DNA of 64,000 bases from an uncultured Thermoleophilia bacterium. Lineage in GTDB: Bacteria > Actinomycetota > Thermoleophilia > UBA2241. Positions 13,901 to 32,761 of this stretch are shown in pieces. A model generated the notes under the pieces. That model searched no databases, had not been told where the DNA came from, and saw only the letters and a program-made list of their open reading frames with translations. The position numbers and the translations under genes are program-made. The stretch is taken from the NCBI GenBank assembly GCA_963831295.1, contig CAWHPR010000003.1, positions 387,746 to 451,745 of the forward strand. Direction: 5' to 3'. Numbering within the stretch: position 1 is the first letter of the stretch; the number at the start of each line of letters is the position of its first letter.

Positions 13901-14288
13901 TCTGGTGGCGCGCCCGCGCGACGGCGCCCTCGACGATCTTCTTCGCCTTCTCCTGGGCGCGCTCGGGCTCGTGGCGGTGCACGAACGAGCAGCCCTCGCG
14001 GATGTTGGCGAAGGCGACCGCGTTCTCGCCGAGCTTCAGCTCGCGGGCGATGCGGTCGAAGGTCGGGCCCTGGAAGCGCTGCGAGCAGGAGGCGATGACG
14101 ACGTGGTCGAGGCCGCGCTCTTCGACCGCCTCGGCGATGAGCTCGCGGCCCTCGGTGCCGCACATGAACTGGTTGACCGCGACCTCGACGACGCCGTCGA
14201 GGGTGCGGGCGTGGGCGGCGAGCGGCTCCATCTCGACGACGCCGGAGATGTTGCCGCCGCACTCGCAGAGGAAGACGCCGGCTCTCAT
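10932..14288 (-). CDS. Large HdrA-like protein with an inserted GltD/NfnB-like NAD(P)H:FAD module (HdrL-type architecture); 2 frameshifts (near 12705 and 12082)
   Basis: The pieces are:
- MRAGVFLCECGGNISG..ALVVGGGIAGMSAA..TEDCAMCSL..CVGCGECVPVCP
- GltD-like SVCGRVCTALCETAC..VAIVGAGPAGLTCA..VVVIGGGDVALDAAR (ORF 12423..14582)
- AIRLQAAAGHEPDVTLVYRR..VFAGGDAA..AIAAGRRGAAAIH (frame of 10420..15225)
- WAEVSRGYTAEEAVAEAQRCLNCAVCSECDSCVRACP..MLQCVGSRD..CSAVCC..CIACGVCEDACP..CRGCGICAAECP (ORF 10932..11726 and its upstream extension). Confidence 0.8.
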
Positions 14289-15225: not shown

Positions 15226-15300
15226 GCACGCCGCCGTCCGTTCGGGCGACGTCGGGGGTCTTGGCGAAGCGCGCGCTCATCGGGCTCCCTCGGTCGATGC

Positions 15301-15835: not shown

Positions 15836-16920
15836 ATGCGTTTCCTCGATGCCTGCGCCCGTCGTCCCGTTGACGCCACGCCCGTGTGGCTGATGCGCCA
15901 GGCCGGACGGTACCTTCCCGAGTACCGCGCCATCCGCGAGCGCCTTGCCTTCATCGAGATGTGCAAGCGCTCCGACGTGGCCGCCGAGGTGACGCTGCAG
16001 CCGCTGCGCCGCTTCGAGCTCGACGCCGCCATCGTCTTCGCCGACATCCTCCTGCCGCTCGAGCCGATGGGCATCGGCTTCACCTTCACGGCCGAGGGCG
16101 GCCCCGTCATCGACCACCCGATCCGCAGCGGCCGCGACGTCAAGGGCGTGCGCGCCATCGACCCGCGGGAGCGAGCTCGGGTACGTGATGGAGACGCTTC
16201 GCCTGGTGCGCCGCGAGCTGCCCGAGACGACGGCGCTCATCGGCTTCGCCGGAGCGCCGTTCACGCTGGCGAGCTACGTGGTCGAGGGCGGGCACTCACG
16301 CAACTACGCGCGCGTGAAGCAGCTCATGCTGGACGAGCCTGTGACGTTCACCCACCTGATGGGCCTGCTCTCCGAGGTCGTCACGGGGTACCTGCTGGCG
16401 CAGATCGAGGCCGGCGCCCAGGCGGTGCAGCTCTTCGACTCCTGGGCCGGCTGGCTCTCGCCCTTCGACTACGAGCACGCCGTGCTGCCGCACGTGCGCT
16501 ATGTGGTCGACAGCGTGCGCGGGCACGGCGTCCCCGTCATCTACTTCGCCAACGGCGCCGCCGGCATGCTGCCGCTGGTCGCGCAGGCCGGGCGCCGACG
16601 TCATCGGCGTCGACTGGCGGGTCGACCTCGACACCGCCTGGGCCCAGCTCGACGACGCGGCCGTCCAGGGCAACCTCGATCCGGCCGCGCTGCTCGGGCC
16701 GACCGAGGCCATCGAGGAGCGCATCGCGGACGTGCTGCGACGGGCGGGCGGCAGGCCGGGGCACATCTTCAATCTCGGGCACGGCCTGCTGCCCGAGACG
16801 CCGCCGGAGCACGTCGGCTACCTCGTCGACGCCGTGCACCGGCTGTCGGCACGCGGGTCCGAGGCGGCCGGCGGGCCGGACGGACCGGCCGCGGCGCAGG
16901 CCGCGAAGGAGGACGCATGA
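15836..16920 (+). CDS. hemE: Uroporphyrinogen decarboxylase; 2 frameshifts (near 16170 and 16592)
   Basis: [47 protein letters not shown], then (E)[36 protein letters not shown], then [28 protein letters not shown]. Confidence 0.9.
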
Positions 16921-17864
16921 CCGACAGCCTCGTCGACGTCGCCCTGCTCGCCTTCGGCGGTCCGACCGACCTGACGCGCATCCCCGACTTCCTCCAGCGC
17001 ATGACGGGGCGTGAGCCCACACCCGAGACGCTGAAGTTCGTCGAGGGTCGCTACGAGACCATCGGCGGCGGCTCGCCGCTCCCCGAGATGACGCGCCGTC
17101 AGGCTCGCGCCCTGCAGGCGCGGCTCGTCCAGCAGCTCGCCTTCCCGCTGCGCGTGCGGCACGGCTTCCTCTACGCCGAGCCGAGCGTCACCGAGTGTCT
17201 CGCCGAGCTCGATGGCGAGGTGGTCGTGGCGCTGCCGCTCTCGCCCTTCGGCTCGCGCCTCACCTCCGACAAGTACCGCGCCGCGCTCGACGCGGCCGGG
17301 GCGGAGCATGTCCCGCTGCTCCAGGGGTGGTATGCGGGCGCGGGCTTCGTCAAGGCGATCAGCAAGCGCATCGCCGAGGCTCTCGACGGGTGCGACGCCG
17401 GCGAGTGGGCGGTGCTCTTCACCGCCCACAACGTCCCGGTCGAGAACGTCCTCGAGGGCGATCCCTACGTCGACCAGCTGCAGCAGACCATCGCGCAGCT
17501 GATCCCGCTGATCATGCCGGGCGACTGGCGCTTCGCGTTCCAGAGCAAGGGGCGCGGCGGCGGCGAGTGGCTCGAGCCCGAGGCGGAGGACGCGGTCAGG
17601 GTCCTCGCCGGCGACGGCTGGGAGAAGCTGCTCGTCGTGCCCGTCGGGTTCGTCAGCGACAACATCGAGACCCACTACGATCTCGACATCGAGCTGAAGG
17701 CGTTCGCCGAGGACTTGGGTATGGAGTACCGGCGCTCGGCGGCGCCGAACGACTCGCCGTTCTTCATCGAGGCGCTCGCCGACGTCGTCGTCGAGCACCT
17801 CGCGCACCGCCCGCTGGAGCAGGGGCCGCGCGCCTCCGGCGAGTCGCACACGCACGGTGGTTGA
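16917..17864 (+). CDS. hemH: Ferrochelatase (HemH/CpfC type), intact
   Basis: The ATG at 16917 overlaps the hemE stop (ATGA). Sequence: [74 protein letters not shown]. Confidence 0.9.
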
Positions 17865-17867
17865 ACT

Positions 17868-19444
17868 GTGAGCGACGCACCCCCGCGCCCGCCGCACCCG
17901 GATCGTCGTCGTCGGCGGCGGGATGACGGGTCTCGGGGCGGCGCGCGCCCTCGAAGACGCGCGCGCCGCGGACCCCTCCGTCGACTGGGTGCTCTACGAG
18001 GCCGAACCGCGCCTCGGCGGCAAGGTCCAGACCGTGCGCCGCGACGGCTTCGTGGTCGAGGGCGGCCCCGACTCGGCCATCATCGAGAAGCCGTGGCCGA
18101 TCCAGATGGCACGCCGGCTCGACATCGGCGACCGCCTGCTCGACTCCAACGAGGACGTGCGCCGCAGCTTCGTCTTCGCGCGCGGCCGTCTTCACGAGCT
18201 GCCCGAGGGCATCATCCTCATGGTGCCGACGCGCATCGTGCCCTTCGCGCTCAGCGGCCTCATCAGCTGGCCCGGCAAGCTGCGCATGGGGATGGACCTG
18301 GTGCTGCCGCGCGGGGGCGAGGACGAAGACGAGAGCCTCGCGCGCTTCGTGCGGCGGAGGCTCGGCGACGAGGCGCTGGCGCGCATCGCCGAGCCCATCG
18401 TCGCCGGCATCCACGCCGGCGACCCCGAGACGATGAGCGTCGCCGCGACCTTCCCGATGTTCCGGCAGATGGAGCGCGAGCACCGCAGCCTGATCGTCGG
18501 GATGCTCGCGCGGCGCAAGGCGCGGGAGCGGGCGAAGGCGGCGGGGACGGCCGGGGGGCGGCGCCGGGGCGCCGAGCGGCGCTCCCGCGAGCGGGCGCGA
18601 GCCCTCGCTCGATACTTCTACTCGTTCGCCACCGGCCTCGGCGACCTGAGCGACGCGATGGCGGCCTCGCTGCCGGCCGAGCGGCTGCGCGCGGGCGTCT
18701 CGGTCGAGACGATGACGCGCCGCGGCGCCGGCTCCGGGGAGGGCGCCGACGGGCCGCGGTACTCGCTCGACCTCGGCGACGGTACCCGCGAGCTCGCCGA
18801 CGCCGTCGTGCTGGCCGGGCCGGCCTTCGCGAGCGGCGCTCTGCTGCGCGCGGTCGCGCCGCTCGCCGCCCGCGACCTCGAGTCGATCGAGTACGTGACG
18901 ACGGCGACCGTGTCGCTGGCCTTCAGGCGCGACCAGATCGCGCATCCCTTGCGCGGCTTCGGCTACGTCGTCCCGCGCGCCGAGGGTCGCGGCGTGATGG
19001 CGACCACGTGGAGCTCGAGCAAGTTCCCGGGCCGCGCGCCCGAGGGGCACGTCCTCCTGCGCAGCTTCCTCGGCCGGGCCGGGCTCGAGGCTGCGGCGCA
19101 GCTCGACGACGCGGAGATGACGACGCTCGTGCGCCGCGAGCTCCGCGACGTGCTCGGCATCGCCGCGGAGCCCGAGTTCGTCGAGATCTTCCGCTGGCCG
19201 CGCGGCATGCCGCAGTACCGGGTCGGCCACGCGGCCCTCGTCGACGGCATCGAGCGACAGCTCGCTGCCGTCGCCCGGCGTCGAGCTCGCCGGCGGCGCC
19301 TACCACGGCATCGGCATCGGCGACTGCCTCAGGGAGGGCGCCGCCGCGGCCGAGCGCGCCCTCGAGCACGTGCGCGGTCTGCCCGAGGACGAGCCGCCGT
19401 CGGCCCTGCCCGACGTGCCGGCGGCCGACGGCGTCGAGGACTGA
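17868..19444 (+). CDS. hemY: Protoporphyrinogen/coproporphyrinogen III oxidase (HemY/CgoX); frameshifts near 17885 and 19265
   Basis: RIVVVGGGMTGLGAARAL..LGGKVQTVRRDGFVVEGGPDS..GIHAGDP..(ORF 17923..19656), then PGVELAGGAYHGIGIGDCLREG..-stop at 19444. The only usable start is GTG 17868, in another frame. A C5 run lies between them. Confidence 0.85.
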
Positions 19445-19639: not shown

Positions 19640-22080
19640 TCACGGCGCCACCGTGAAGATCGAGTTGGACAGCATCCTGAAGCCGTTCTTGATGTGGGCC
19701 CTGAACACGGGGTCGTTGCCGAAGCACGACGGCGTTGCCGTTGCGCACCGCCGCCGCCTGTCCGTCGATGGCCTCGTAGCCGGGCATGAAGCCGGAGATG
19801 AAGGCGTCGTCCGGATAGGTGGCCAGTACCTCGAGCCCCGTCGTGTCGGTGAAGTAGGCGGGGAAGTAGTCGAACAGGTAGTCCTCCTCGGGGTAGCAGC
19901 CGGTGATCGGGTTGTCCCTGCGCGAGCACCGCGTTCGACGATGCCGTTGCTCTCCGACGTCGACGTCAGCGACAGATACGAGGCGACGACCCCGAAGGTC
20001 CTGGCGAACGAGGCGCCACCGGAGCCCGTGGTCACGAGCCCGCCACCTCCCGCAAGGAACTCGCTGACGAGCGGTCGGGCATCCACGTCGCGGGCGCCGA
20101 CTCGCCGGACACGATCACGTCGTAGTCGGCAAGGGCGCCGGCAAGGATGTCGGCGTCACGCACGATGGTGACGTCGAAGCCGAGCTCCTTGAGCACGAAC
20201 ACCATCGGGCCGACGGTGGCGTTGCCGGCCGTGCCGGATGAGCCGTAGTTGATGCGCGTGCCGTCCGGCCAGAAGCGCGGCAGCGAGCCCCACCAGACGG
20301 GGTTGCCGTCGGCGTCGAGCGGCACGTTCGGCGCGTTCACGTCGGCCGGCGTGGCGGGCGCGTCGCTGCGCCGCGTGAAGGCGGCGATCTTCACCGGGGC
20401 GAGCTCCTTGAGGCAGGCCGCGTCGGGTGGGCTGATGCCGGTGAACGTCAGGCCGTACTCCTTGGCCAGCGGCAGCAGGCTCTGGCCGGCGGCGCGCACG
20501 ACGAACGTGCCCGCCGGCCAGCAGCCGGCGTCGGTCTGGAGCATGGCGACGCCGCAGCCGCCGGCGAGCAGCTTGTTGACTGCGACGACGGCGTCGTTCG
20601 TGTCGTTGCGCAGCGCGAAGGTCGTGCAGGCCGGGCGCTTGACGGCCCCGGCCGGGTACGCCGCCCGCTTGACGTTACGCAGCGACGCCGCGAAGGGCTC
20701 CTCGGCGATCACCCGGGTGAAGCCCCAGAGCTCGGGGTAGCTCACCGCGGCGATGTCGTACATCGGGATGCCGGGCTCGTAGGTCAGGTTCTCGCCCTCC
20801 CAGAGCAGCGAGTTGGCGATGCCGGCGAAGGGCTGGTTCAGCGGCACGACGTAGCTGCCCTTCGGGTACCAGACGCCGTCGTAGCAGAAGGCCTTCTTCG
20901 CGACCTTGACCTGGATCTCGTAGCCGATCAGCTGGTCGACCGTCTTGGCGGCCTCGATCGGGTTCTTCTGCAGGCCGCCCATCGGGATGATGTGGGCGAA
21001 CGGGTACTCGCCGCCCTCGGGCCCGCCGAAGTTGGTGCCGCGACGGTAGATCTCGATCTGGGAGCGGAACATCTCCTCGCGGTTCTCGGCGGCGAAGAGC
21101 ATGGCCGCCCACGTCGACCAGAAGTGCCCCTCGACCCCGCGCCAGTCGCGCGGGCCGGTCTCGATGGTCTGCGCGCTCAGCCCGTAGTACAGGCCGAACA
21201 TCGGGATGTAGATGGGCGCGTAGTCGTCCCAGCCGCCCTCGACGTCGTAGTCACGGTAGGGGATCTGCGCGAAGGGGAAGTCCTCCGGCATCTCGGCGGC
21301 GAGGCGCGCCTCTTGGGCCTCGGCCTGCTGCAGCATCCAGTCGAGGTAGATGTCCTCCTCGTAGTTCGGGTTGTGCGGCATCGAGCAGGGCTCGATGAGG
21401 ATCGGCTTGACGAAGCCGTGGTTGTCGCAGCTCACCATCGGCTTCCACGTCGTGTACATCTTGGCGATCACGCGCGCCTCGGGCTGCGAGAGCGTGATCA
21501 GGTCGCGGTTGCAGTCGAAGCCGTTGGCGTTCTGCCGCCAGCCGTCGATGCGCCCGTCCGGGTTGGCGACGACGTTGATGACGACGATGCAGTTCTCGAG
21601 GATCTTGCAGACCTCTTCGTCGTTCTCGAAGGCGAGCTTCTGCGCCATCCAGATGCCGGCGTCGACCCCGGTCGTCTCGAAGCCGTGGATGCTCGAGTTG
21701 ATGAACACCGGGACCTTGTAGTCGTAGTCGCGCTCGATGACCTCGAGCGCCTTCTCCGGATTCCTGATCATCAGCTTGCGCAGGCTCTGGTACTTGCCGT
21801 ACTTGCCGTGCGCGGTCGGCTCGCTGATGACCATCTGCCAGATCGGGCGGCCGCCGGCGGAGGTGCCGACCTCGGTCACCTTGACGCGCGGCGACATCTC
21901 GAGACCGGCCAGGTAGCCGGGCAGCTCGGAGTAGTAGATGTGGTCGTAGTTGAGGTTGGGCCACTCGTAGTCCTCCTGCGCGAACGCGGGCGCGGCGAGC
22001 CCCGCGGACACGGCCGCGAAGAACGCGAGCAGCAGGAGCAGGACGAGTGGCACGGCGAAGACGTGGCGGTCGACCCTCAT
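19640..22080 (-). CDS. Secreted M14-family zinc carboxypeptidase with extra C-terminal domain; 3 frameshifts in the last ~450 nt
   Basis: Signal peptide MRVDRHVFAVPLVLLLLLAFFAAVSAGLAAPAFAQ. Also SSIHGFETTG (HxxE zinc motif) and VANPDGR. The C-terminal part is reconstructed from ORF 19640..20086 plus a third frame (DNPITGCYPEEDYLFDYFPAYF..), ending ..NSIFTVAP-stop. Confidence 0.8.
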
Positions 22081-22336
22081 GGCGATCCATCCCCCTTTGG
22101 TCACTGGACGGGAGGGCGCGCGGGCGCCGGCGGTCGCGCGAGAGAGCCGGCGCGAGGCGCGCCAAGAGTGGTCCCATAGCACCCCCTTCTCGCGCCCGAT
22201 CCGTGACGCCGCCGGTCCCCTCGTACGGCGACGATGGGCGCGCGAGGAGAGTCTTATCACTCGCCGCGGCGAGGGTACATAGTCACCGCCGTTTAGGTCC
22301 TATGCGGCCGGCTCTGGGAGCCGCGAGCCGCGCTTC

Positions 22337-22774
22337 TCAGTACTTGCCGAGCAGCTTCCAGATCCAGCGGTGCGGGGCGTGCATGCTGAAGCCGGGCTCG
22401 TTGTACATCACCGCGCAGTGCCCGGTGATGACCTTGAGGCCGCGCTCCTTCGCGGCGGCGAGGGCCTCCGGCGTGTCGGTCATCTGGTGGAGCCAGATCT
22501 CGGTGATGCCGGCGTCGGCCGCCTTGGCGACCCAGTCGGCGGTCTCCTCCTTGGGCAGCTCGAGGACGGCGGCGTCGACCTTCGCCGGCAGCGCGGCGAA
22601 GTCGGGCCAGGCCTGGTCGCCCTCGACCGTCTCGGCGCCGGGGTCGACGGCGTACACGGTCTTGCCGCGCTTCTTGAGGGCGTTGTAGGTGAGCTTGGGG
22701 AAGGCGCGCTTCTCGCCGTGGCCGACCACGGCGTAGCTCTCGCGCTCCCAGAAGCGTTCGCACTCGGAGGGCAT
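22337..22774 (-). CDS. CoA-binding domain protein (YccU-like)
   Basis: MPSECERFWERESYAVVGHGEKRAFPKLTYNALKKRGKTVYAVDP..LPAKVDAAVLELPKEE..AGITEIWLHQ. AAGGAG lies 6 nt upstream of ATG 22774. Confidence 0.75.
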   Translation of the reverse strand: MPSECERFWERESYAVVGHGEKRAFPKLTYNALKKRGKTVYAVDPGAETVEGDQAWPDFAALPAKVDAAVLELPKEETADWVAKAADAGITEIWLHQMTDTPEALAAAKERGLKVITGHCAVMYNEPGFSMHAPHRWIWKLLGKY

Positions 22775-22849
22775 CGCGTCTCCTTCTCGTCGGCGGGTGG
22801 GTCGTCGCGGTCCGGCGGTCTCGACAGGCAAGCGCCAGGGACGGGCGGG

Positions 22850-23773
22850 TCAGGCGCCGGCCGGCCCGTAGCAGGCGGCCGGCGCCAGGACGTCGGGGAA
22901 GCGGTCGCGCAGGGCGAGGCGCGTCTCGAAGCAGAGGTGGCAGGCGTCGGCGTAGCGCTCGCGCGCCGGCTTCGACGTCGTAGGCGCGGGCGAGCTCGAG
23001 CGGGCCGCCGCGGAGCAGCTCGCGCACGACCGGCAGGTCGTGCGGGTCGTAGCGCTCGACCACGGCGGCCAGGCCGTCGCGCCAGACGTTGCCGGCGCTG
23101 ATCCCCTGGCAGAGCTGCAGCTCGCCGTCGGGGCCGAGGTGGGCGCGCCCGGGCTCGACGAAGTCCTCGTGGGGGCACTCGGTGAAGGCGTCGGGCGGGC
23201 GGCCGTCGAGCTCGGCTCGCTCCGCGGCGAGCTCGACGGCCGCCCGCCCCTTGTACATGATCTCGCCGACGTCGCCGGTGCAGACGCCCGGCAGGTCGAG
23301 CATCGCTTCGGCGCCGACCTCGAGCAGGCCCATCGGCAGCTCGAGCTCGAGCGCCGCCTCGACGGCGTTGCGCAGCAGGCGCTCCTCGAGCTTGTCGCTC
23401 CTCGGCGAAGTACGCGTACGACGAGAGCGAGAGGTCGGCGACGCCGAGCTCCTTGAGCGGCGCGAGCCAGACCTTGGCGTCCTCGACCGACTCGGCCCAG
23501 TGGCAGTTGGTCACGACGCCGACGTCGAGGCCGCGCGCCCGTGCGTACCGCGCGGCCTCGAGCACGACCGGCCAGTACAGCGTGGGCTCGCCGCCCTCGA
23601 AGTAGACGGTGTCGATCGCGGGCACGTCGCGCGGTCTGGTCGATGGCGTCGCGGAGCTGCGCCAGCGTGAGCGTGCCCTCGGCCTCGGGCCCGCCGAAGA
23701 CGAAGCAGTGGTCGCAGGCGTAGATGCAGCGGTACGTGACGAGGAAGTGGATGGCGCTCAGCGACATCGGCAT
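22850..23773 (-). CDS. Radical SAM protein with SPASM/twitch-like C-terminal Cys motifs; 3 frameshifts
   Basis: MPMSLSAIHFLVTYRCIYACDHCFVFGGPE (CX3CX2C), then IDTVYFEGGEPTLYWP..GVVTNCHWA, then FTECPHEDFVEPGRAHLGPDGELQLCQGISAGNVW, then ERYADACHLCFETRLAL..-stop. These are pieces of ORFs 22850..23830, 22480..23625 and 22293..23333. Confidence 0.7.
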   Translation of the reverse strand: MPMSLSAIHFLVTYRCIYACDHCFVFGGPEAEGTLTLAQLRDAIDQTARRARDRHRLLRGRRAHAVLAGRARGRAVRTGARPRRRRRDQLPLGRVGRGRQGLARAAQGARRRRPLALVVRVLRRGATSSRSACCATPSRRRSSSSCRWACSRSAPKRCSTCRASAPATSARSCTRGGRPSSSPRSEPSSTAARPTPSPSAPTRTSSSPGAPTSAPTASCSSARGSAPATSGATAWPPWSSATTRTTCRSCASCSAAARSSSPAPTTSKPARERYADACHLCFETRLALRDRFPDVLAPAACYGPAGA

Positions 23774-23912
23774 GTGCGGCAGTATAGACGCGCCGGGCAG
23801 ACAAGGCAGGGAGCGCGTTCGTCGCGCCATGCCCTATCGGTCAGCCGGCGGGAGCGGCGGCGGGGCCGGCGGCGCGGCGCTCCGGTCGCACGATCCGGTT
23901 CAGACGCCGGCG

Positions 23913-25076
23913 CTACTTGTTGTGGCACTCCTCGCAGACGCCGCGGTCGTCGAGCCGGAGGAAGGCGTTCTTGGTGCCCGGCGGCACGGAGCCGTCGTCG
24001 CTGTCGGGCTCGGGATCGGTGGCGTCCGCGACGTCGGCGAAGCCGGTCATCACGGCGTCCGAGCCGTGGGCGCGATGGCAGGTGAGGCAGTCCATCCAGT
24101 CGTCGGTGCGCGCCTCGGGCGTCCACTCCCCGTACTCCTGGGCGAGCGGCAGCTGCAGGGCCTTGAGGCGGAGCGGACGAGCCCCGAGGTACTCGGCGAG
24201 AGGGACGTTCAAGGGGTGGCGGTAGCGCATGACGTCACCGAAGCCGTCCTCGGCGTCGTACCGGCTCGACGTGTCGAGATCGGCGCGGTGATACTCGGTG
24301 TGGCACGCCGCGCACCAGGCGCTGATCCCGCGCGTCCGGTCCTCGCCGGGAGCCTTGGCGTACATCGGCGTCGTGTAGTCGGGCTCGTACTCCGTCGATC
24401 TGCGCGGCGCCGGCGTCGTGCAGCAGCCAGCCCTCGTCCGGGTAGCCGGGCTCGTTGGAGATCACGAACGGGTCGGGGGCGTACTCGCCGGGGCCGGTCG
24501 CCACGTAGCCGCCCGACCTCGACGCCGTTCACGACGTCCTTGAGCAGGCGGTAGTTCGAGCTGCCGTGCACGTCGTGGCAGGAGCAGCAGGTCATGACGA
24601 CCGTCGCCCTCCCCGCCGCAGGGGCTCGCGAGCGTCGCCGTCACAGTTGTGGTGGTTGTCGCCGACGACGTGCGCGCCGAAGGCGCCTCCGTTGAGGGCG
24701 GCGCCGAGCGTCCCGTACCCGTCGGCCTCGTAGACACCGTCGTCGACGTTCGTCGCGGCGCCGGCCGCGTGCGCCGCCGTGACACGAGAAGCAGAACTGG
24801 CACGAGTCGTGTCTCGGTCCCGAGCAGGAGTGCGCGCCGTTGCTCGCCGGGTGTCGCTCCACGTGATGCTGCTGGCGGCCGTGTGCGCACGGTGGCACCC
24901 GGCGCAGGCGCCTGGGAGTCCATGGAGTAGCCGCCGTGGATCCCGAAGTTCGCGAGGGCAACGCCGGGGAGCAGGCACAGCACGCGGCGACGGCCGTCGA
25001 TGCCGAAGATGCGCAAGAGGGCCGGCGACGACCACCGCCGGCAGCCCGCGACAAGAGTACGCCCCAAGTACCCCAC
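23913..25076 (-). CDS. Hexahaem c-type cytochrome, OmcS-like, paralog A; at least 4 frameshifts in the N-terminal two thirds, start uncertain (GTG 25076 or TTG ~25008)
   Basis: Reconstructed as ..VLCLLPGVALANFGIHGGYSMDS..CAGCHRAHTAASSITWS..CQFCFSCHGGA..AGAATNVDDGVYEADGYGTLG..VMTCCSCHDVHGSSNYRLLKDVVNGVEVGGYV..EPGYPDEGWLLHDAGAAQI..ISAWCAACHTEYH..VMRYRHPLNV..DCLTCHRAHGSDAVMTGFADV..RGVCEECHNK-stop. It has six CXXCH motifs. Confidence 0.75.
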
Positions 25077-25299
25077 AGCCCCCGTGCTCCGTGCCCCGGC
25101 ACCGTGCCCCGGTACCGAGTGTACGGTCAGACGTTAGGGGCGTACGAGGAGGTTCGCAAGCATCTCGCGTGTACAAGTCTGTATACGGGGGCGCCGCCGA
25201 CGCGGTGCGGCACGACGAAGCCCGAAGCGCGGCCGCGGCACGCGAAGGGCGGCCGTCCGGGCGGGGCTCGAGCGGCACGGCGATGCGGGCAGCGAAGAC

Positions 25300-25328
25300 G
25301 GGAGGGCCGGGCATCGCCCGGCCCTCCC
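25300..25328 (-). terminator. Hairpin after OmcS-like gene B
   Basis: Perfect 13-bp stem gggagggccgggc / gcccggccctccc with a 3-nt loop, about 40 nt downstream of the stop at 25368. On the coding strand it is followed by gtcttcgc (poor U tract). Confidence 0.45.
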
Positions 25329-25367
25329 TCGTACACGCCTTCGGCGCGCCGTCGCTTGGCGCCGCCG

Positions 25368-26477
25368 CTACTTGTTGTGGCACTCCTCGCAGACACCGCG
25401 GTTGTCGAGCCGGAGGAACGCGTTCTTCGTGCCCGGCGGCACGGAGCCGTCGTCGCTGTCGGGCTCGGGGTCGGTGGCGTCGGCGACGTCGGCGAAGCCG
25501 CTCATCCGCCTTGTCCGAGCCGTGGGACTGGTGACAGGTGAGGCAGTCCAGCCAGTCGTTCGGGCCGGCCTCGAGGCGTCCAGTCTCCGTACTCCTGCGC
25601 GACGGGGAGCGTCAGGTTCGTGAGGTTGAGCGCGCGAGCGCCCGAGGTAGTCGCTGAGCGGGACGTTCACCGGGTGAGGGTAGCGCATGACGTCGCCGAG
25701 ACCGTCGTCGGCGTCGTACTGGCTCGGCCCACGTGCCGTGATATCTGGTGTGGCACGCCGCGCACCAGGCGCTGATGCCCTTGTCCGGGTCCTCATCGGG
25801 CGCCTTGGCGTACATCGGCGTCGTGTAGCTGGGCTCGTACGCCTCGATCTGCGCCGCACCGGCGTCGTGCAGCAGCCAGCCGTCCTCCGGGTAGCCGGGC
25901 TCGTTGGAGATCACGTACGGGTCGGGGAGGAAGTCGCCGCCGGCCGTCTCGACGTAGCCCCCGACGTCGACGCCGTTCACGACGTCCTTGAGCAGGCGGT
26001 AGTTGGAGCTGCCGTGCACGTCGTGGCAGGAGCCGCAGGTCATGACGATGTCGCCGTCACCGCCGTGGGCGGTCGACGGAGCTCCCGTCGTAGGTGTGGT
26101 GGTTCTCGCCGACGACGTCCTCGCTGAAGGCGCCGCTGTTGAGCTCAGCGCCGAGCGTGCCGTAGTCGCTAGCCTCGTAGACGCCGTCGAAGACGTTCGT
26201 CGCGGCGCCGGCAGCAGCGCTGCCGTGGCAGGTGAAGCAGAATTCGTAGAGCTCGGTCGCGGTCGACAGCAGGAGCGCGCTGCTGCTGCTCGCTCGCCGA
26301 GTTCGTCCACGTGATGCTGCTGGCGGCGGTGTGCGCGCGGTGGCAGCCGGCGCACGTGTGGGTGTCCATGGAGTAGCCGCCGTGGATGCCGAAGTTCGCA
26401 AGGGCGATGCCGGGGGTCAGGAGCAGCACGGACGCGCTGGCTGCCACTGCCAGTATCGAGTCGAGACGTTTCCGCAC
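25368..26477 (-). CDS. Hexahaem c-type cytochrome, OmcS-like, paralog B; at least 5 frameshifts
   Basis: GTG 26477 follows GAGGGGGAAAC. Reconstructed as VRKRLDSILAVAASASVLLLTPGIALANFGIHGGYSMDTHTCAGCHRAHTAASSITWT..LYEFCFTCHGSAAAGAATNVFDGVYEASDYGTLG..IVMTCGSCHDVHGSSNYRLLKDVVNGVDVGGYV..ISAWCAACHTRYH..VMRYPHPVNV..DCLTCHQSHGSDK..GFADVADATDPEPDSDDGSVPPGTKNAFLRLDNRGVCEECHNK-stop. Confidence 0.75.
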
Positions 26478-26594
26478 GTTTCCCCCTCGCACTTCTGCGG
26501 GTCTATCGGTGTTCATCTGGGCGGCGGTGCGATCACCACAAGACAAGCGACCAGCCGGAACTGCCAACACGGGCGCCCCTCGGCGCATGTGCGC

Positions 26595-26623
26595 ATTATA
26601 GGGTCACCACACTAGGGTGACAA
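26595..26623 (-). promoter_or_regulatory. Near-consensus sigma-70-type promoter (TTGTCA-N17-TATAAT) in front of OmcS-like gene B
   Basis: On the minus strand the sequence reads TTGTCA ccctagtgtggtgaccc TATAAT, starting 3 nt after the NHL gene's stop codon (26626-26628). It sits in a locally AT-richer patch and also contains GTCACC..GGTGAC dyad symmetry. The predicted leader to GTG 26477 is ~110 nt. Confidence 0.5.
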
Positions 26624-26625
26624 CA

Positions 26626-28191
26626 TTACGCGCCGCGGCCTCGCGTGTGCTCGCGACCCGACCGCCCCTTGTCGAGGAAGCGCTCCACGAACAGCCGCGC
26701 GTCGTACGCGTCCACTCCCAAAGCCCGAGCGGTCGAGGCCAGCGAGGGGGCCTGCGTGCACAGCGTCCCGGCGCGCCTGGCGACGGTGAGCAGCACCGCG
26801 GTCGGGTGCTCCACGCCGATCCGCTCCATGAGGTCCTTGGCATCGGACTCCGAGTGCGCCTGGGCGGTCAGGAGCGCGTCGAGAGACACCCCGCCGAGCT
26901 CGCGACCCTCGTAGCGAGGGGACTCCTCGGCGGGCACGATCCACATCCAGCGCCTTCTGGACCACGCCCAGCGCGTCCCGGCCTCCATGTACTCGATGAG
27001 GCCGGCGACGGTCATCGCCTCGAGGAAGTCCTCGGTGACCACGAAGCGGCGGCGGCGGAGCAGCAGCAGCAGCGGCAGGAGCAACAGACTCAGCAGAGGC
27101 CAGAGGACGGGCCCGTCGGATATCTCCGAGACGATGGACTGCGGTTCGGGCCACCCCCACACCTGCACCCGACCATTGACGCGATCGGTGAGGTAGATGA
27201 AGCCGCGCCGGTCGAGCGCGAGGTCGTTGGCGAAACGGAACTGGCCCGGGCCGGCGCCCGGGCCGCCGAAGCTGGCGATACGCTCGCCGGACGCGCGGTA
27301 GACGTCTGCCTGGTGCGCGAGCGCGTCGGCCACGTAGAGGCGGCCCTGGTCGTCCATGTCGAGACCGCGCGGGATCCCCGACGTGTTGATGACGCGATCG
27401 AAGTCTCCCTGCTCGCTGAAGACCTGGACCCGCTGGTTGTTGCTGTCGGCCACGTACACGACGCCCTTGCGTACGACGAGGCCGTTGGGGAACAGGAACC
27501 TGCCGGGCACGTCGGTCACCCGCTCGGCCTGCCCCGACCCCCCGAACCGCCGGATCTCGTCGCCCTCTCGATCGAACTCGATGACCTGGTGGAGGTCGCT
27601 GCGGCCCACGTCGCTCACCCAGAGGTTGTCGTCCTCGTCGAAGGCCAAGGCGAGGGGGCCCCACACTGCGGCCTCGTCGGCGTCGGCGGGTGCGACCTTG
27701 CGCAGGTACTCCCCGTCGGCCGAGAACACGTAGACGGCGCGGTGGCCGCGGTCGCTGACGAAGACCTCCCCGATCGAGTTCAGCTCGACGTAGACGGGCG
27801 TGGTGAGGGCGGTCCTGTCGCCGTCGGCGATCTCGGAGAACGAGAAACGGTAGTCGCCCTCGACGGTGTAGACGCGGACCGCTCCGGCGGCCGCGTCGGT
27901 GACGTACACGAGGTCGTCCGCGGACACGTCGACGCCGAGCGGCTGGGTGAGCGCGTCGCGGCCCCCAGGCCCGCTGATCGAGTACAGGTACTCAGGGGGC
28001 GAGACGATCCCTCCGGCGCCGAGGATCGGACCCGGGGCCGACGTGTCGCGGGAGCTGTTGTAGTAGTAGATGGCGCAGAGCGTCAGCACGAGCAGGAGGA
28101 GGGCGGCGAGAAGCGCGACGATCTTGCGCCGCGACGTCCTGCGCTCGGCCCTGCCGAACGGCCCCTGCTCGTGCTGTGCGTCGGTCGCCAT
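26626..28191 (-). CDS. NHL-repeat beta-propeller membrane protein (TM - NHL repeats - TM - ~170-aa cytoplasmic domain), intact
   Basis: The ATG at 28191 is preceded by GGAG. TM1 is KIVALLAALLLLVLTLCAIYYY. Repeated blades: LVYVTDAAAGAVRVY, VFVSDRGHRAVYVF, LWVSDVGRSDLHQVIEF, VYVADSNNQRVQVF, LYVADALAHQADVY, IYLTDRVNGRVQVW. TM2 is VLWPLLSLLLLPLLLLL, followed by RRRRFVVTEDFLEAM... Confidence 0.8.
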   Translation of the reverse strand: MATDAQHEQGPFGRAERRTSRRKIVALLAALLLLVLTLCAIYYYNSSRDTSAPGPILGAGGIVSPPEYLYSISGPGGRDALTQPLGVDVSADDLVYVTDAAAGAVRVYTVEGDYRFSFSEIADGDRTALTTPVYVELNSIGEVFVSDRGHRAVYVFSADGEYLRKVAPADADEAAVWGPLALAFDEDDNLWVSDVGRSDLHQVIEFDREGDEIRRFGGSGQAERVTDVPGRFLFPNGLVVRKGVVYVADSNNQRVQVFSEQGDFDRVINTSGIPRGLDMDDQGRLYVADALAHQADVYRASGERIASFGGPGAGPGQFRFANDLALDRRGFIYLTDRVNGRVQVWGWPEPQSIVSEISDGPVLWPLLSLLLLPLLLLLRRRRFVVTEDFLEAMTVAGLIEYMEAGTRWAWSRRRWMWIVPAEESPRYEGRELGGVSLDALLTAQAHSESDAKDLMERIGVEHPTAVLLTVARRAGTLCTQAPSLASTARALGVDAYDARLFVERFLDKGRSGREHTRGRGA

Positions 28192-28199
28192 GGGCTCCG

Positions 28200-29207
28200 T
28201 CAGTCCTCGGCCTGAAGGCGCTTGAGCGCGGCGACGGCCTCGGGCTCGTCGGGCCACAGGGCGAGCACCTTCTGCCAGGCCTCTTCAGCCGAGCCGGGGT
28301 CGCCCGTACGCAGGTAGAGCTTGGCGACCAGCTTGGCGGCGGCCGGGCTGCCGGGGTCGAGGGCGCGGGCCACTCGGGCCTCGACGAGCGCGGCCGAAGC
28401 GTCGGTCTTGGCCAGCCGTCTCGCGGCGGCGAAGCGCTCCTCGAACGGCCCCAGCCGGACGAGCTCATCGCCCGGCTCCGTGATCCCCTCGGGAGCGTTG
28501 TCGGCCGAGGTGCGGAAGTGCTCGGCTGCTCCGGCGACGTCGTCGTCGGCGAGCAGCAGCAGACCGTAGTCGTAGTTGGCCTCGGGCATCAGCGGGTCGA
28601 ACATGAGCGCCCTCTCGAGGTGGAGACGCTGGTTGGCGACCGAGGCGCGTTCGCGATATGCGACCGCGAGCGCGTAGTGCGTGTCCGCGGCGGTGCGGCG
28701 GATCTTCAGCGCTTCGTGCAGGTACTTGACCGCCTCTCTGTACTTCTCGCGTTCGATGAGCGTCACGCCGAGCTGATGGTAGGCCACGGCGAGGCGCTGG
28801 TCGAGGCCGGCATACTGCCCCGTCCCGATCTCACCGACGACGCGGCGCCAGTACTCCTCGGCGCTCTCCCACTCGCCCTCGTACATGGCGATGAGGCCGA
28901 GACCCGTGAGCGCGTCGGGGTTGTTCTCGTCGAGTTCGAGCACGACGCCGAACTGCTCGATGGCGTCGTCGACCTGGCCGGCCGCGGCGTAGGCCTCGGC
29001 GAGCGTCAGCCGCAAGCTGAGGTCGTTGGGGTTCTCCTCGATGGCGGCGATGAGGTCTGTGATGACTCTGGACGCCGCCGCCGATTCGCGCTCCCGCGAC
29101 TGTTCCGTGAGGACGGTGTAGGCGAGATACCCGATGGCGACCACGGCCAGCAGCACGACCACTTTGAGGGCCACGTCGATCCACCGCGTGTCCCGCAGGG
29201 CCCTCAC
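28200..29207 (-). CDS. Membrane-anchored TPR-repeat protein, intact
   Basis: 335-aa ORF with N-terminal TM WIDVALKVVVLLAVVAIGYLAYTVL, followed by TPR-like helices (LAEAYAAAGQVDDAIEQFGVVLELDENNPDAL.., AVAYHQLGVTLIEREKYREAVKYLHEALKI..). Confidence 0.8.
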   Translation of the reverse strand: MRALRDTRWIDVALKVVVLLAVVAIGYLAYTVLTEQSRERESAAASRVITDLIAAIEENPNDLSLRLTLAEAYAAAGQVDDAIEQFGVVLELDENNPDALTGLGLIAMYEGEWESAEEYWRRVVGEIGTGQYAGLDQRLAVAYHQLGVTLIEREKYREAVKYLHEALKIRRTAADTHYALAVAYRERASVANQRLHLERALMFDPLMPEANYDYGLLLLADDDVAGAAEHFRTSADNAPEGITEPGDELVRLGPFEERFAAARRLAKTDASAALVEARVARALDPGSPAAAKLVAKLYLRTGDPGSAEEAWQKVLALWPDEPEAVAALKRLQAED

Positions 29208-29253: not shown

Positions 29254-30852
29254 TCACAGGTGCGGCCCGGTGTGACAGCGCTTGCACAGGTCGGATCCCG
29301 GCCACGGCGCGATCTGGTCGCCGCGGGAGTCCGCGGCGCCGTGGCAGTCGTAGCAGATGCGGATGTCGTGCCCCCCGATCTCGGCGGACTGCTGACCGGC
29401 GTGCTGTACCCGCGCCGCCGTCAGCTTGAGATGGCAGTCGTCGCAGCGGTGCGGCCTGCCGACGTGTTCTTCGACATCGAAGTGCGCGGCGTGCTCGGCG
29501 AGCTTCGCCACCTTGATCTCACTGGGCCGTCTGCGCATCTCGGGATGACAGTTCACGCAGTTCTCGGCCCGCAACTCCTGACTGCGGTCGGGATCGTGGT
29601 GGCACTCCTGACACCAGTTGCGGTCCGAGTGGCACACGCCGCAGTCGTCGGGCATGAAGCCGCTGGACGTGTGCGACGCGAGCCAGGTCGTCGGGTGCGG
29701 CATGACAGTCGGGTGGCACCGGCTGCACGACTCGTTCGTGTGGCAGATCGAGCACGTGGCTTCTCCGCTGAGAAGGAACGGCTCGCCGTGCTCGGCCATC
29801 CACGCGGCGGTCTGGTGGTCGTCGGGGATCACCTCTTTGCTGTACGAGCCGTCCGGCAGCCGCTTCTCGCTGCGGTGACACTCCGCGCAGAACGCCGAAG
29901 CGTGGCAGGTCGTGCAGTCGAGCAGGTCCTCGGCGCCCGGCTTGCGGTGACTGCTCGCGATGAACGCCGCCGTGTGATCGGCCGGCACGAGCTCGAAGCC
30001 CGGCGGATGACACGCCCCGCACTCGTCGGGAGCGGCCTCGCCGTCCTCGGTGTGCTGAACGCCGTGGCAGCGATAGCACGACGACATGTCGGGGCGGTCG
30101 GTGGCGCCGGCGCGGTGCGGGAACCTCTCGTGGCACACCTCGCAATCGTAGTCGCGTTCGAAGTGCACGGCGTGCGTGAAGAGCAGGCCGTCCCCCTCGC
30201 TCCTGTCGATGTCGGGGTGGCAGAAGACGCACTGCCCCATCGTGACAGGCCCGTCCACACTGATCGTGAGGGGCGGCCGCGACTCGGGCAGGGGGACGTT
30301 GCGCAGATAGCCCGGTGCGGCAAGCGGCGTGTCGACCCCCTGTTCCCTGTGGCAGGCATCGCAGTGCGCGCGCGCCTCGTGGCACATCATGCAGCCGTTC
30401 GAGCCTCCGCGCTCCACGGCGCCGGCGTGCGGCTCCTCGGTCCAGTCCTCGCTGTGATCCGCGGGCCTGAGCTCGAAGGCCTGCGTGTGGCAGGTGTCGC
30501 ACGAGTCGGCGGCCATGACGCCGTCGGAACCGTGAACGAGCCCGTGACAGGCGAAGCACGTCTCCATCGGCGGCACGTGCGTTGCGCCGCCCTCGTGCGC
30601 CGAACGCACGTGGCACACGCTGCAGTCGACGGTGGCGTGCGCATCGTGTGCGAAGACGAGGCCGGGGTCGCGAGACTCGGCGATGCGCTGGTGACAGGGA
30701 CTGCACGACTCGATGCGCACCGGGCCGGTCAGATCGATCTCGGTGGGCTGTGTCGCGCCCACGCCCGGCTGCAGCGTGCCGGCCAGCACGACGACGACGA
30801 CGGCGATGGCGGTCGCCGCTGTCAGGTACGCGTGTCGGCGGGTCGGTCGCAT
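29254..30852 (-). CDS. Multihaem c-type cytochrome with 20 CXXCH motifs, N-terminal membrane anchor/signal, intact
   Basis: 532-aa ORF. I count 20 CXXCH motifs: CSPCH, CSVCH, CFACH, CDTCH, CMMCH, CDACH, CVFCH, CEVCH, CYRCH, CGACH, CTTCH, CAECH, CSICH, CSRCH, CGVCH, CQECH, CVNCH, CDDCH, CYDCH, CKRCH. The N-terminus is MRPTRRHAYLTAATAIAVVVVVLAG. Confidence 0.9.
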   Translation of the reverse strand: MRPTRRHAYLTAATAIAVVVVVLAGTLQPGVGATQPTEIDLTGPVRIESCSPCHQRIAESRDPGLVFAHDAHATVDCSVCHVRSAHEGGATHVPPMETCFACHGLVHGSDGVMAADSCDTCHTQAFELRPADHSEDWTEEPHAGAVERGGSNGCMMCHEARAHCDACHREQGVDTPLAAPGYLRNVPLPESRPPLTISVDGPVTMGQCVFCHPDIDRSEGDGLLFTHAVHFERDYDCEVCHERFPHRAGATDRPDMSSCYRCHGVQHTEDGEAAPDECGACHPPGFELVPADHTAAFIASSHRKPGAEDLLDCTTCHASAFCAECHRSEKRLPDGSYSKEVIPDDHQTAAWMAEHGEPFLLSGEATCSICHTNESCSRCHPTVMPHPTTWLASHTSSGFMPDDCGVCHSDRNWCQECHHDPDRSQELRAENCVNCHPEMRRRPSEIKVAKLAEHAAHFDVEEHVGRPHRCDDCHLKLTAARVQHAGQQSAEIGGHDIRICYDCHGAADSRGDQIAPWPGSDLCKRCHTGPHL

Positions 30853-30874: not shown

Positions 30875-31745
30875 CTATCCGCCGAACAGTCCGGCGATGG
30901 CGCCCCCGACCCACTTGAGGGTCGAGTAGAGCGGGTTGGCCTCGAGCACGTCGCGCTTGCCGTGGATCAACTCGGTGTACTCGAGGAAGCCCTCGTTGAC
31001 GTCACCCTTGTGACAGGCGCCGCACGTGTCCGCCAGCCGGCTCTGGTGAACAGGCGACCGGGGATCGGACGACGGGTAGACGTCATGGTAGCCGTGGCAG
31101 TCCCAGCACGCCGGTGCGTCTGTTGCTCCCCGACGGTACGCGCGCCCGTGGTAGTAGTCGTCGTAGCTGTTCCACTCGTCTTCGTGGCACCTGCCGCAGA
31201 CCTCCCAGCCGTCGGCGTGCAGGGCGCGGCGGCCTTCTGGGCTGTCCGCGAGCGCGACGACGCCGTGGCTGCCGTGGCAGTCACCGCAGAGCGGGAACTC
31301 GGCTCCTTCGGGGACGGCGCCGGCATGGTCCTCGACCTTGCCCCGGTGGACGCTGGCCCAGTATGCGCGGCTCTCTTGCTGATGGCAGTTCTTGCAGGCC
31401 AGGCGTGAAACGTGGTCCCAGTTCTCGGACGGCTGGGTGTGCGGCGCCGTGAAGGCGAAGTCGATGTGACAGCCGATGCACTGCACGTCCGCGTGCGGGC
31501 TGGCCGCGAGCTCGTCGGTGTCGACGTAGTAGCTCACGATCTCTCCGCCCTCCGGCCGGACCGAGGTCCTCGTCGTCATGGCAGACGAGGCATCCGGCCC
31601 GCGACGCCGTGGGCAGCGTGAAGTCGACGTCGTATCCGCCGACCTGAGGATCGGTGTCACCGCTCTCGGCGAGCGCCGGGGTCGCCGACGAGAGCGCCAT
31701 CACGCACGCCAGGGCGACGAGCAGGAGCATCTTGCGGGTCGTCAT
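30875..31745 (-). CDS. Heptahaem c-type cytochrome with signal peptide and C-terminal hydrophobic anchor (CbcA-like); 1 frameshift near 31560
   Basis: MTTRKMLLLVALACVMALSSATPALAES..CLVCH (ORF 31281..31745) joins ORF 30875..31660 (CIGCH, CKNCH, CGDCH, CGRCH, CWDCH, CGACH), ending ..LKWVGGAIAGLFGG-stop. ATGA overlap with the cytochrome b stop. Confidence 0.8.
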
Positions 31746-32761
31746 TCGGTGTCACCTGCAGACGGCCCGCTCACGTGCGTCGACTGCATCGGCGTCAGGA
31801 CCCCCACCTTCTGACGCGAGTCTTGGTGTGGTGGCTGGACGTGAGTCGGAGCGGGTGCCGGGTGCGACTGCTCCTCAGGGCGGCTGTCGCCGGGCGTTCC
31901 TTGCGACTCCTGCGACGCGCGCCGGGACGGTCGCGAGCGCTTCAGGATGCCGAAGAAGTCACGGACCGCGGGGAAGTCCTCAGTCACGCAGAGGTACGCA
32001 TGGACGGTCGTGAGGATGATGAACAGCCACGTGATCGCGTAGTGGAGGGAGCGCGCGTACCATCCGGCGAGGTCGGTCGAGCCCACGAGCGCGCCAAGCC
32101 ACCAGCCGAGCAGCAGGTCGCGCGGGCTGTAGCCGAAGATGAACGGCGTGACGACGAGCGAGAATCCCGTGAGCGCCTGCAGGGTCATGAGCGGCACGAA
32201 CAGGATGTACGTGGCCTTCTGCATGACGTTGTACTTGCAGAGATGCGGTTTCGAGCTCTTGATGAACACGTAGTAGAGGGCGCACTTGGGCGCCGAGCAG
32301 ACATCCTGCTTCGTGATGGCGAACTCCTTGTAGTCACGCCGCTTCGAGAAGAACGCGCACCATATGCGCCACGCGAAGTTGACCGTGACGACGATCATGA
32401 ACACGTAGTGGACGCCGCGCATCGCGCTGCGGCCGCCGTCGAAGAACGGGAAGCGGATGTAGAGACCGGTGAATCCCAGCGCGAACATCGAGAACACGTG
32501 CTGGAAGTGCAGGAACTTGTTGAGGAGTGGGATCGGCGGCCCGTCGTGGTCGGGCCACTGCTTGTTCACGTACCGGGCCTTGAGGCGCCCGGTGAGCAGG
32601 TTGCCGACGAGGTGCGCCGACAACGCGGCGACGACGAGCACGTACAGCGTGGTGAAGCCGACATCGAGCCAGACGTTCAGTTCTGACAGTGGTATTACTG
32701 ACCCCCCCTCGGGTGTCCGCCCATAATACCGCGTCCGGAGTGCTCCAGGGCCCCGACGCAC
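31742..32761 (-). CDS. Membrane b-type cytochrome (PhsC / formate-dehydrogenase gamma / Ni-Fe hydrogenase cytochrome b family; CbcB-like)
   Basis: Polytopic protein with conserved His residues in TM helices (LNKFLHFQHVFSMFALGFTGLYIRFPFF, RGVHYVFMIVVTVNFAWRIW, SLHYAITWLFIILTTVHAY). The listed GTG 32761 lies inside a strong hairpin. An alternative start is an ATA codon at 32695, which sits 6 nt after GAGGGGGGG. Confidence 0.75.
   Translation of the reverse strand: MRRGPGALRTRYYGRTPEGGSVIPLSELNVWLDVGFTTLYVLVVAALSAHLVGNLLTGRLKARYVNKQWPDHDGPPIPLLNKFLHFQHVFSMFALGFTGLYIRFPFFDGGRSAMRGVHYVFMIVVTVNFAWRIWCAFFSKRRDYKEFAITKQDVCSAPKCALYYVFIKSSKPHLCKYNVMQKATYILFVPLMTLQALTGFSLVVTPFIFGYSPRDLLLGWWLGALVGSTDLAGWYARSLHYAITWLFIILTTVHAYLCVTEDFPAVRDFFGILKRSRPSRRASQESQGTPGDSRPEEQSHPAPAPTHVQPPHQDSRQKVGVLTPMQSTHVSGPSAGDTE

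Follow-up and report, generated by a model that had tools for sequence, protein, structure and literature searches.

How do bacteria of the Gram-positive type carry electrons past their wall? All cytochrome nanowires solved to date come, to our knowledge, from diderm bacteria (OmcS, OmcE and OmcZ) or archaea. We have analysed a 64,000-nt stretch of DNA (hereafter the window; ∼71% G+C) from an uncultured Thermoleophilia bacterium, a soil actinobacterium of the Gram-positive type (contig CAWHPR010000003.1, positions 387,746 to 451,745). On its minus strand lie two tandem genes, A and B, that encode c-type cytochromes with six haem-binding CXXCH motifs each; they are the last members of a cluster whose genes are all co-oriented. 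We consider it likely that the cluster specifies an extracellular electron-transfer chain ending in A and B as secreted hexahaem cytochromes of the OmcS family, as far as their identity and the class of their role are concerned. Profile comparisons place the two proteins in a large group of Actinomycetota (Thermoleophilia and Coriobacteriia/Anaerosomatales) that is distantly homologous to the hexahaem family formed by OmcS, OmcT and OscC in Geobacter.

Two tandem cytochrome genes and their frameshifts

The gene pair runs from 26477 to 23913, and the two copies are 89% identical at the DNA level. This is the extent given in the original prediction, which a model had made from the sequence alone; gene A does start at 26477 and the stop codon of gene B does end at 23913. 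Gene A (25368..26477) begins with a GTG codon at 26477, with the Shine-Dalgarno sequence GGGGGA 5 nt upstream, and its stop codon ends at 25368; with six inserted bases taken out (near 26282, 26080, 25722, 25643, 25576 and 25507) it encodes an OmcS-like protein of 370 residues. Gene B (23913..∼25076), the tandem paralogue, encodes ∼367 residues once at least eight inserted-base frameshifts are removed. Its start, either GTG at 25076 or TTG at 25016, is uncertain, since the stretch for the signal peptide, IFGIDGRRRVLCLL, probably hides two further compensating shifts.

Neither gene is an intact open reading frame (ORF): in the three-frame translation the coding frame hops 0→1→2→0, six times in A and eight times in B. 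In a scripted reconstruction every junction skips exactly 1 nt (2 nt once) and no stop codon appears in the result, so that the corrected frames are stop-free over 367 (A) and 365 (B) codons and the stitched proteins have 370 and 367 residues. Each protein has a predicted Sec signal peptide ending in ALA, followed by NFG, and each has six CXXCH motifs in the order CAGCH, CF(T/S)CH, C(G/C)SCH, CAACH, CLTCH, CEECH; the plan that had been predicted for two proteins of ∼370 residues is borne out by the corrected translations. The first motif, which has a further histidine three residues downstream, lies at 26331..26354 in gene A (C42-A-G-C45-H46-R47-A-H49, the His49 codon being 26333..26331) and, as read from the sequence, at 24883..24906 in gene B (CAGCHRAH). 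Over their full length the corrected proteins can be aligned with intact counterparts of 358–383 residues from other assemblies, at identities of up to 90–91%; the reconstruction is therefore backed by independent sequences and not by eye alone. Sub-clades of both the A-like and the B-like type are found in relatives.

The frameshifts in A and B are errors in the assembly consensus and do not reflect the biology of the organism. A syntenic metagenome contig from the Joint Genome Institute (L001) has the whole cluster with all genes intact. With the proteins of this contig used as probes, breaks of the same type were detected elsewhere in the window: two in an S9 peptidase gene, one in another multihaem gene, three in a radical-SAM (S-adenosylmethionine) gene, one in the gene for a HemY-like oxidase and two in hemE. 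The closest relative, a Thermoleophilia metagenome-assembled genome (MAG; L004) with 93% DNA identity to the window, carries a single copy of the cytochrome gene; in a base-level alignment the window has one extra base per site in comparison with it, mostly beside an identical base. The nearest relatives are long-read MAGs of Thermoleophilia, and one of them, L010, is similarly fragmented. The ratio of non-synonymous to synonymous substitution rates (dN/dS) of the corrected genes against intact orthologues is 0.21–0.26, and the corrected A and B are under purifying selection; between the paralogues A and B the ratio is 0.51, and in the intact pair of L001 it is 0.50.

A reading in which A and B are true pseudogenes, with real mutations accumulating in a lineage that is losing the cytochrome pair, would account for at least 14 frameshifts in 2.2 kb, a density ∼10 times that of the other syntenic genes we looked at, and for the single copy kept by the closest relative. 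We regard it as highly improbable: the shifts are without exception insertions, usually next to an identical base, and belong to the class seen in the genes for hemE, the HemY-like, radical-SAM and S9 peptidase proteins and the multihaem protein; in-frame stops, deletions and losses of motifs are all absent from A and B; the dN/dS values are those of genes under constraint, with the value for the paralogues matching that of the intact pair; and a related long-read MAG shows like fragmentation. The treatment of the frameshifts as errors in the original prediction was thus justified by the same insertions in unrelated genes, by the absence of stops and by the dN/dS values. Programmed frameshifting, suggested by the uniform direction of the shifts, was considered as well and dropped, as intact orthologues read through in a single frame and insertions of this type also turn up in unrelated genes.

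At 22800–26500 (A, B and the adjoining radical-SAM gene) single-base insertion errors reach ∼10 times the density seen in the remaining syntenic genes within 14000–36000, and all shifts are +1. Our guess is that near-identical tandem copies in a strain-variable region, one with a single copy in L004, defeated polishing.

Homology to OmcS and the haem-ligand histidines

A profile built from 81 homologues placed OmcS (6EF8/6NEF) at the top of 177,635 sequences of the Protein Data Bank (PDB), with an E-value of 2.1e-11 and haem motifs 1–5 aligned. With 59 representatives, mutually <50% identical, OmcS was again the top PDB match (E-value 4.4e-21), and all six CXXCH motifs were collinear over OmcS residues 8–405. 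In the profile searches the other multihaem cytochromes in the PDB fell behind OmcS by 10 or more orders of magnitude. In profile-to-profile comparison (hhalign), the family matched OmcS, in a sequence identical to 6ef8_A, with a probability of 98.6%, and an alignment of 55 OmcS-family members with a probability of 99.3% (E-value 9e-21, 227 columns, haems 1–4 paired). The paired segments (here/OmcS) include ANFGIHGG/AFHSGG, CAGCHRAH/CEGCHTMH, CGSCHDVHGSSNYR/CSSCHDPHGKYR and GISAWCAACHT/GMSEWCANCHT, and the contexts shared outside the haem motifs are A(N)F..HGG at the mature N-terminus, GG.F, CHD.HG..YR and G(I/M)S.WCA.CHT. One pair listed in the original prediction, MRY(P/R)HP here against LRHP in OmcS, is not placed together in the hidden Markov model (HMM) alignments. 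As judged by these profiles, homology of A and B to OmcS is established as real but distant, and the place of the family is outside the OmcS/OmcT/OscC group of Geobacter, not beside OmcS itself.

The family is large, with 1504 clusters at 50% identity (E-value ≤1e-3) among 1.84 billion representatives, and because of this size the motif pattern of A and B is not a product of chance. Domain databases say less about it. The doubled CXXCH domain PF09699/TIGR01905 is matched (48.5 and 44.0 bits at a cut-off of 20.6; 41 and 36.9 bits at a cut-off of 25.2), a label given to multihaem proteins in general that says nothing about function, and the other Pfam and NCBIfam matches, to MtrC/MtrF and c7, are weak.

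Twelve histidines are invariant in the 81 homologues: the six proximal ones of the CXXCH motifs and six distal ones (H32, H49, H128, H157, H270 and H320). Twelve is the number needed for six bis-histidine haems. Among the 59 diverse representatives, which reach down to 30% identity, ten of the twelve are invariant, H49 included, H157 and H368 are kept in at least 90%, and R47 is invariant as well. In the structure of OmcS by Wang et al. 2019 the histidine that bridges subunits is reportedly His16, which binds haem 5 of the next subunit. The claim that the histidine three residues past the first motif is its equivalent has held up: H49 is paired with His16 in the profile and hhalign alignments (and H32 with His2 in the latter), it is conserved in 81 of 81 homologues and 59 of 59 representatives, and His16 for its part is invariant across the OmcS family. 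In OmcS filaments a haem is coordinated by a distal histidine of the neighbouring subunit, and this bond links the protomers (PMC12307469). Conservation marks H49 as a haem ligand and leaves ligation in cis and in trans undistinguished.

The likeness to OmcS (G. sulfurreducens GSU2504) extends beyond the ligands. Both proteins are secreted (here by prediction), measure ∼370–407 residues and are poor in secondary structure; their six CXXCH motifs are collinear, and each has six distal histidines; both have a mature N-terminus with a histidine, followed by CXXCH-x-x-H, and both chains end a few residues past haem 6. The loops between haems are shorter in A and B, and identity to OmcS in the structural alignment by Foldseek is 17%. 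OmcT (GSU2503) resembles gene B in being a tandem second copy. The duplications behind OmcT and OscC (GSU2501) are, however, internal to Geobacter, and that of A and B is independent, because both copies group with sequences of actinobacteria and there are A-like and B-like sub-clades in relatives.

A weaker match was found to the nanowire protein OmcE (7TFS of G. sulfurreducens and 9YUQ of Desulfuromonas soudanensis). It covers the N-terminal ∼170 residues with haem motifs 1–3, including CXXCH-x-x-H and CSSCHDVHG. Profile E-values were 7.7e-6 and 3.4e-4 for 9yuq, where the alignment takes in the signal peptide, and 1e-3 and 5.4e-6 for 7tfs; the match to 7TFS persists (E-value 1.4e-4) with a profile free of the signal peptide. 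A profile of the OmcS family searched against the PDB retrieved OmcS only and no OmcE. The scores are modest, and the family of A and B may form a sequence bridge between the OmcS and OmcE nanowire families, which have been described as unrelated. OmcE itself differs in having four haems and ∼220–230 residues, against six haems and 367–370 residues in A and B.

A probable member of the family has been glimpsed before. Arbour et al. 2020 (PMC7399161) mention, in a bioanode MAG named ‘S27 BJP Coriobacteriales’, an OmcS homologue with 28% identity and six CxxCH motifs. It very probably belongs to the family of A and B, in which the named matches are MAGs of Coriobacteriia and Actinomycetota. That report consists of a single sentence and contains neither the size of the family nor its histidine set, the module of TPR and NHL proteins described below, the link with formate dehydrogenase or the pair in Thermoleophilia. 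OmcS homologues are widespread in diverse bacteria according to Portela et al. 2024, a text in which the term ‘Actinobacteria’ is absent.

The gene cluster in the window and in related actinobacteria

Upstream of the cytochrome pair the cluster opens with a gene for a membrane b-type cytochrome (31742..32761, minus strand; Ni_hydr_CYTB/hydrogenase cytochrome b family) with at least four transmembrane helices, a candidate for the entry point on the quinol side. It is followed on the same strand by a multihaem cytochrome gene with six CXXCH motifs (30875..31730), orthologous to the gene for a 293-residue protein and broken by an inserted base at 31561, and by a gene for a multihaem cytochrome of 532 residues with 20 CXXCH motifs and an N-terminal transmembrane anchor (29254..30852). 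Next come a TPR-repeat protein with an N-terminal transmembrane anchor (28200..29207) and, directly upstream of A, a protein with an NHL-repeat beta-propeller (Pfam NHL, E-value 3e-24) between two predicted transmembrane helices (26626..28257). The C-terminal ∼140 residues of the NHL protein (26626–27050), past the second helix, form a predicted cytoplasmic domain without a family match.

Two signals frame gene A, both on the minus strand. The spacer between the NHL gene and A has a sigma-70-like promoter, TTGTCA-17-TATAAT, with 11 of 12 matches (26595..26623; one found, 0.1 expected in shuffles), and ∼40 nt past the stop codon of A, between A and B, there is a perfect 13-bp G+C hairpin followed by GUCUUCGCU (25300..25328), which looks like a terminator or an attenuator. 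The folding free energy of the hairpin is −46.6 kcal/mol (z = −4.55), and none of 200 shuffles was as stable. With a strong promoter of its own and a hairpin downstream, gene A probably encodes the abundant component.

The arrangement has a counterpart in Geobacter, where the original prediction had placed omcT as a tandem paralogue after omcS and an NHL gene beside them. In the Geobacter locus L002 a gene for a 315-residue protein with a weak NHL match (Pfam NHL, 20.7 bits) does stand directly before omcS, which is followed by omcT, and the 315-residue protein is similar to the NHL protein of the window (BLASTP E-value 2e-8). Other neighbours in the Geobacter locus are a YNCE/lactonase propeller, a 718-residue protein and an LpoB-like protein. 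The NHL protein of the window is not similar to the propeller at the OscD position there.

We compared 80 related actinobacterial loci. Homologues of the TPR protein were found in 60 of them and homologues of the NHL protein in 72, and in the common layouts, about 70 of the 80 loci, the genes come in the order TPR, NHL, cytochrome. In 58 loci, from Coriobacteriia and others, an insert of 3–6 kb separates the NHL gene from the cytochrome gene. It encodes a molybdoenzyme resembling formate dehydrogenase N (FdnG-like; TIGR01553, E-value 3e-102) and exported by the twin-arginine (Tat) pathway, together with an iron–sulphur (FeS) subunit for which FDH3_beta is the best match in NCBIfam. The gene for the alpha subunit is split by a single in-frame stop that probably encodes selenocysteine. 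On the 3′ side of the cytochrome gene these loci have genes for a protein with 12 transmembrane helices that matches no family, a lipoprotein-like protein (273 residues) and a second NHL protein, which also has two transmembrane helices. The clade of the window is without the molybdoenzyme, FeS subunit, 12-helix, lipoprotein-like and second NHL genes, and no homologue of the molybdoenzyme or of the FeS subunit was found anywhere in the 64-kb window.

In the clusters of OmcE there are reportedly always two multihaem cytochromes and two beta-propeller lipoproteins, and homologues of OmcE have been reported from five diderm phyla only (bioRxiv 10.1101/2025.10.22.684050). The cluster of A and B resembles them in combining two multihaem cytochromes and beta-propeller proteins with the putative subunit; it differs in lacking a large beta-barrel, an absence that is expected because there is no outer membrane. 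In Desulfovibrio ferrophilus IS5 and Geoalkalibacter ferrihydriticus, genes for NHL propellers are co-expressed or co-located with those for extracellular multihaem cytochromes, and the propellers have been proposed to stabilise cytochrome complexes (PMC5815863, PMC12016550). Those systems belong to diderm hosts, include porin-type components and have cytochromes unlike OmcS.

Several further observations concern the surroundings of the cluster. The cytochrome pair is followed by the radical-SAM gene with its three frameshifts (22850–23830, minus strand; CxxxCxxC near the N-terminus of the protein) and by a gene with a coenzyme A (CoA)-binding domain (22337–22831, minus strand); genes of both kinds also follow the cytochromes in the Thermoleophilia-type loci L001, L004, L005, L007 and L010. 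A 742-residue protein similar to M14 zinc carboxypeptidases, with an N-terminal transmembrane or signal segment (20032–22260, minus strand), is absent from the syntenic L001 and L004; in its place L001 has an HtrA-like Trypsin-PDZ protease directly downstream of its second cytochrome gene. A few kb from the cluster, on the plus strand (15836–19441), are genes for haem biosynthesis, namely hemE/UROD (two frameshifts), ferrochelatase and a HemY-like FAD (flavin adenine dinucleotide) oxidase (one frameshift), and likewise in L001. The flanks at 7572–15261 and 42394–43767 (both minus strand) encode a 990-residue HdrA/MvhD(FlpD)-like protein, a glutamate-synthase-like FAD/FeS oxidoreductase, a CCG-domain protein and a hybrid-cluster (prismane) protein whose N-terminus is apparently truncated. 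These redox proteins of the anaerobe type fit an anaerobic lifestyle.

Possible roles as wire subunit or as carrier of the wall zone

In the chain that we propose, electrons would leave the quinol pool through cytochrome b and cross the wall zone via the anchored multihaem proteins, and the secreted OmcS-like A and B would serve as the outermost haem conduit and link the chain to an acceptor or donor outside the cell, with the TPR and NHL proteins anchoring or organising the conduit. The structure of the genes, the inventory of haem motifs and histidines, the homology, the synteny and the nature of the errors are shown by the data; the localisation, the electron path and any polymerisation are what we infer. 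By analogy with OmcS, A and B may assemble head to tail via the N-terminal arm, His49 of one protomer binding a haem in the following one, a plausible idea that we put forward tentatively and hold to be somewhat less likely than not. A more inclusive reading would make the family the nanowire subunit of monoderm Actinomycetota, polymerising via its N-terminal CXXCH-R-x-H arm, assembled or anchored by the TPR protein and the two-helix NHL protein instead of osc or porin machinery, and fed by the 20-haem cytochrome or, in Coriobacteriia, by an exported formate dehydrogenase, with OmcS and OmcE sharing an ancestral N-terminal module of three haems; taken as a whole we think this rather unlikely.

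A number of results weigh against the proposed reading or bear on whether the resemblance to OmcS is due to descent. A search of the PDB with the single sequence of protein A (phmmer) gave no OmcS match even at E ≤10, and in the profile matches the HMMER bias terms are high (22.9 and 16.9 bits). OmcS was also outside the best 60 matches of a profile made from 15 sequences, though that list was swamped by matches of an artificial linker (GGGGS) to single-chain variable fragment (scFv) chains. The predicted structure points in the same direction. An AlphaFold2 model of A, made with an alignment of 81 sequences, reached a mean predicted local distance difference test (pLDDT) score of 79.6 and a predicted template modelling (TM) score of 0.76. 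A Foldseek search of the PDB with this model gave one significant match, 6ef8_A (E-value 1.3e-4, probability 0.99), and superposition of the two, with models that lack haems, gave TM-scores of 0.37/0.34 and a root-mean-square deviation of 12.3 Å. An OmcS orthologue modelled likewise (pLDDT 83) had TM-scores of 0.88/0.93 to 6ef8; the method is thus able to reproduce OmcS, and the weak superposition of A is real at the level of the model. The predicted overall architecture has accordingly diverged from that of OmcS. Could mere convergence in the spacing of CXXCH motifs and histidines and in composition, without common descent, have produced such a picture? We find this barely credible. OmcS comes out ahead of all PDB chains, with the many other multihaem cytochromes among them far behind; the six motifs are collinear and contexts outside the haem sites are aligned too; the hhalign comparison is close to certainty; and the upstream NHL gene and the tandem paralogue are shared with Geobacter. 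The OmcS-like identity claimed in the original prediction therefore stands, by the rank of OmcS in the family profiles and by 6ef8_A being the sole significant match in Foldseek; its motif-by-motif alignment is upheld by the profile and hhalign comparisons and is not recovered from the single sequence.

Common descent with OmcS leaves two roles to consider. Similarity of the family to OmcS, OmcT (hhalign 98.8%) and OscC (98.1%) is equal, and of these only OmcS is a known polymeriser; OmcS is the sole known wire among its paralogues, and wires cannot be predicted from homology (bioRxiv 10.1101/2025.11.06.686851). The companions of OmcS encoded by the osc genes are given as the YncE-type propeller OscD, OscEFG and the prolyl isomerase OscH (PMC13194489; bioRxiv 2025.11.06.686851), and in the cluster of the window we found no such osc companions, with neither a YncE-type propeller nor a 718-residue or LpoB-like neighbour. 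The neighbours here are instead the TPR protein, the membrane-anchored NHL protein, the 20-haem cytochrome and cytochrome b, and the host, an actinobacterium of the monoderm type, has no outer membrane to cross. In the 58 loci with the insert the cytochrome gene comes directly after the alpha/beta pair of the exported enzyme resembling formate dehydrogenase (e.g. L026:3635–12646), which suggests a role as redox partner, instead of or besides that of a wire; in most carriers of the family the hexahaem protein may take its electrons from this enzyme. A and B could then be hexahaem carriers of the wall zone that do not polymerise: monomers or small oligomers, with all six distal histidines in cis, moving between anchored cytochromes and extracytoplasmic enzymes or soluble or solid acceptors, akin to OmcT, OmcJ and OscC or to the dedicated cytochrome c partner of periplasmic formate dehydrogenases, as in an FdhABC3-like arrangement. 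This has, in our view, close to an even chance of being right, with the gene order, the solitary position of OmcS among its paralogues, the low TM-score and the missing osc-type genes in its favour. Yet the clade of the window lost or never had the formate-dehydrogenase pair and has kept, and even duplicated, the cytochrome. As in OmcS, the chain begins with a histidine-bearing arm and ends right after haem 6. The arm is also unplaced in the monomer model: residues 25–51, with haem motif 1 and H49, have pLDDT <50, and the N-terminal arm (residues 19–39) is the sole low-confidence segment of the OmcS control. A low-confidence arm common to both models is compatible with docking in trans, no more. 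Given the haem order of OmcS, finally, the histidine past motif 1 would be at the far end from haem 5 and out of reach in cis, to judge from the published OmcS structure.

The proposed chain, with or without a wire at its end, bears on how bacteria of the Gram-positive type move electrons beyond the wall. A and B are not categorically new; they are a divergent variant of the OmcS type in a monoderm electron-export cluster, with a different type of envelope and a different accessory set. The OmcS family gains from this locus a large, defined actinobacterial branch that has the full set of histidines and a conserved accessory module of its own, made of the TPR protein and the NHL propeller, without outer-membrane components. 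Errors in long-read MAGs conceal such genes from gene callers. Cultured Anaerosomatales carry clusters with multihaem and molybdoenzyme genes, and one of them, an obligate Fe(III) reducer, forms appendages only on ferrihydrite (PMC9686372); MAGs of that order carry the family of A and B, and the cultured members could serve as a test bed. The branch provides concrete candidates for wires of the OmcS type in monoderms and for a minimal machinery of their assembly. If A and B do not polymerise, they would still represent a widespread carrier that has gone unannotated, as ‘cytochrome c3 family’ or ‘hypothetical’, and that is linked in most genomes to an exported enzyme resembling formate dehydrogenase.

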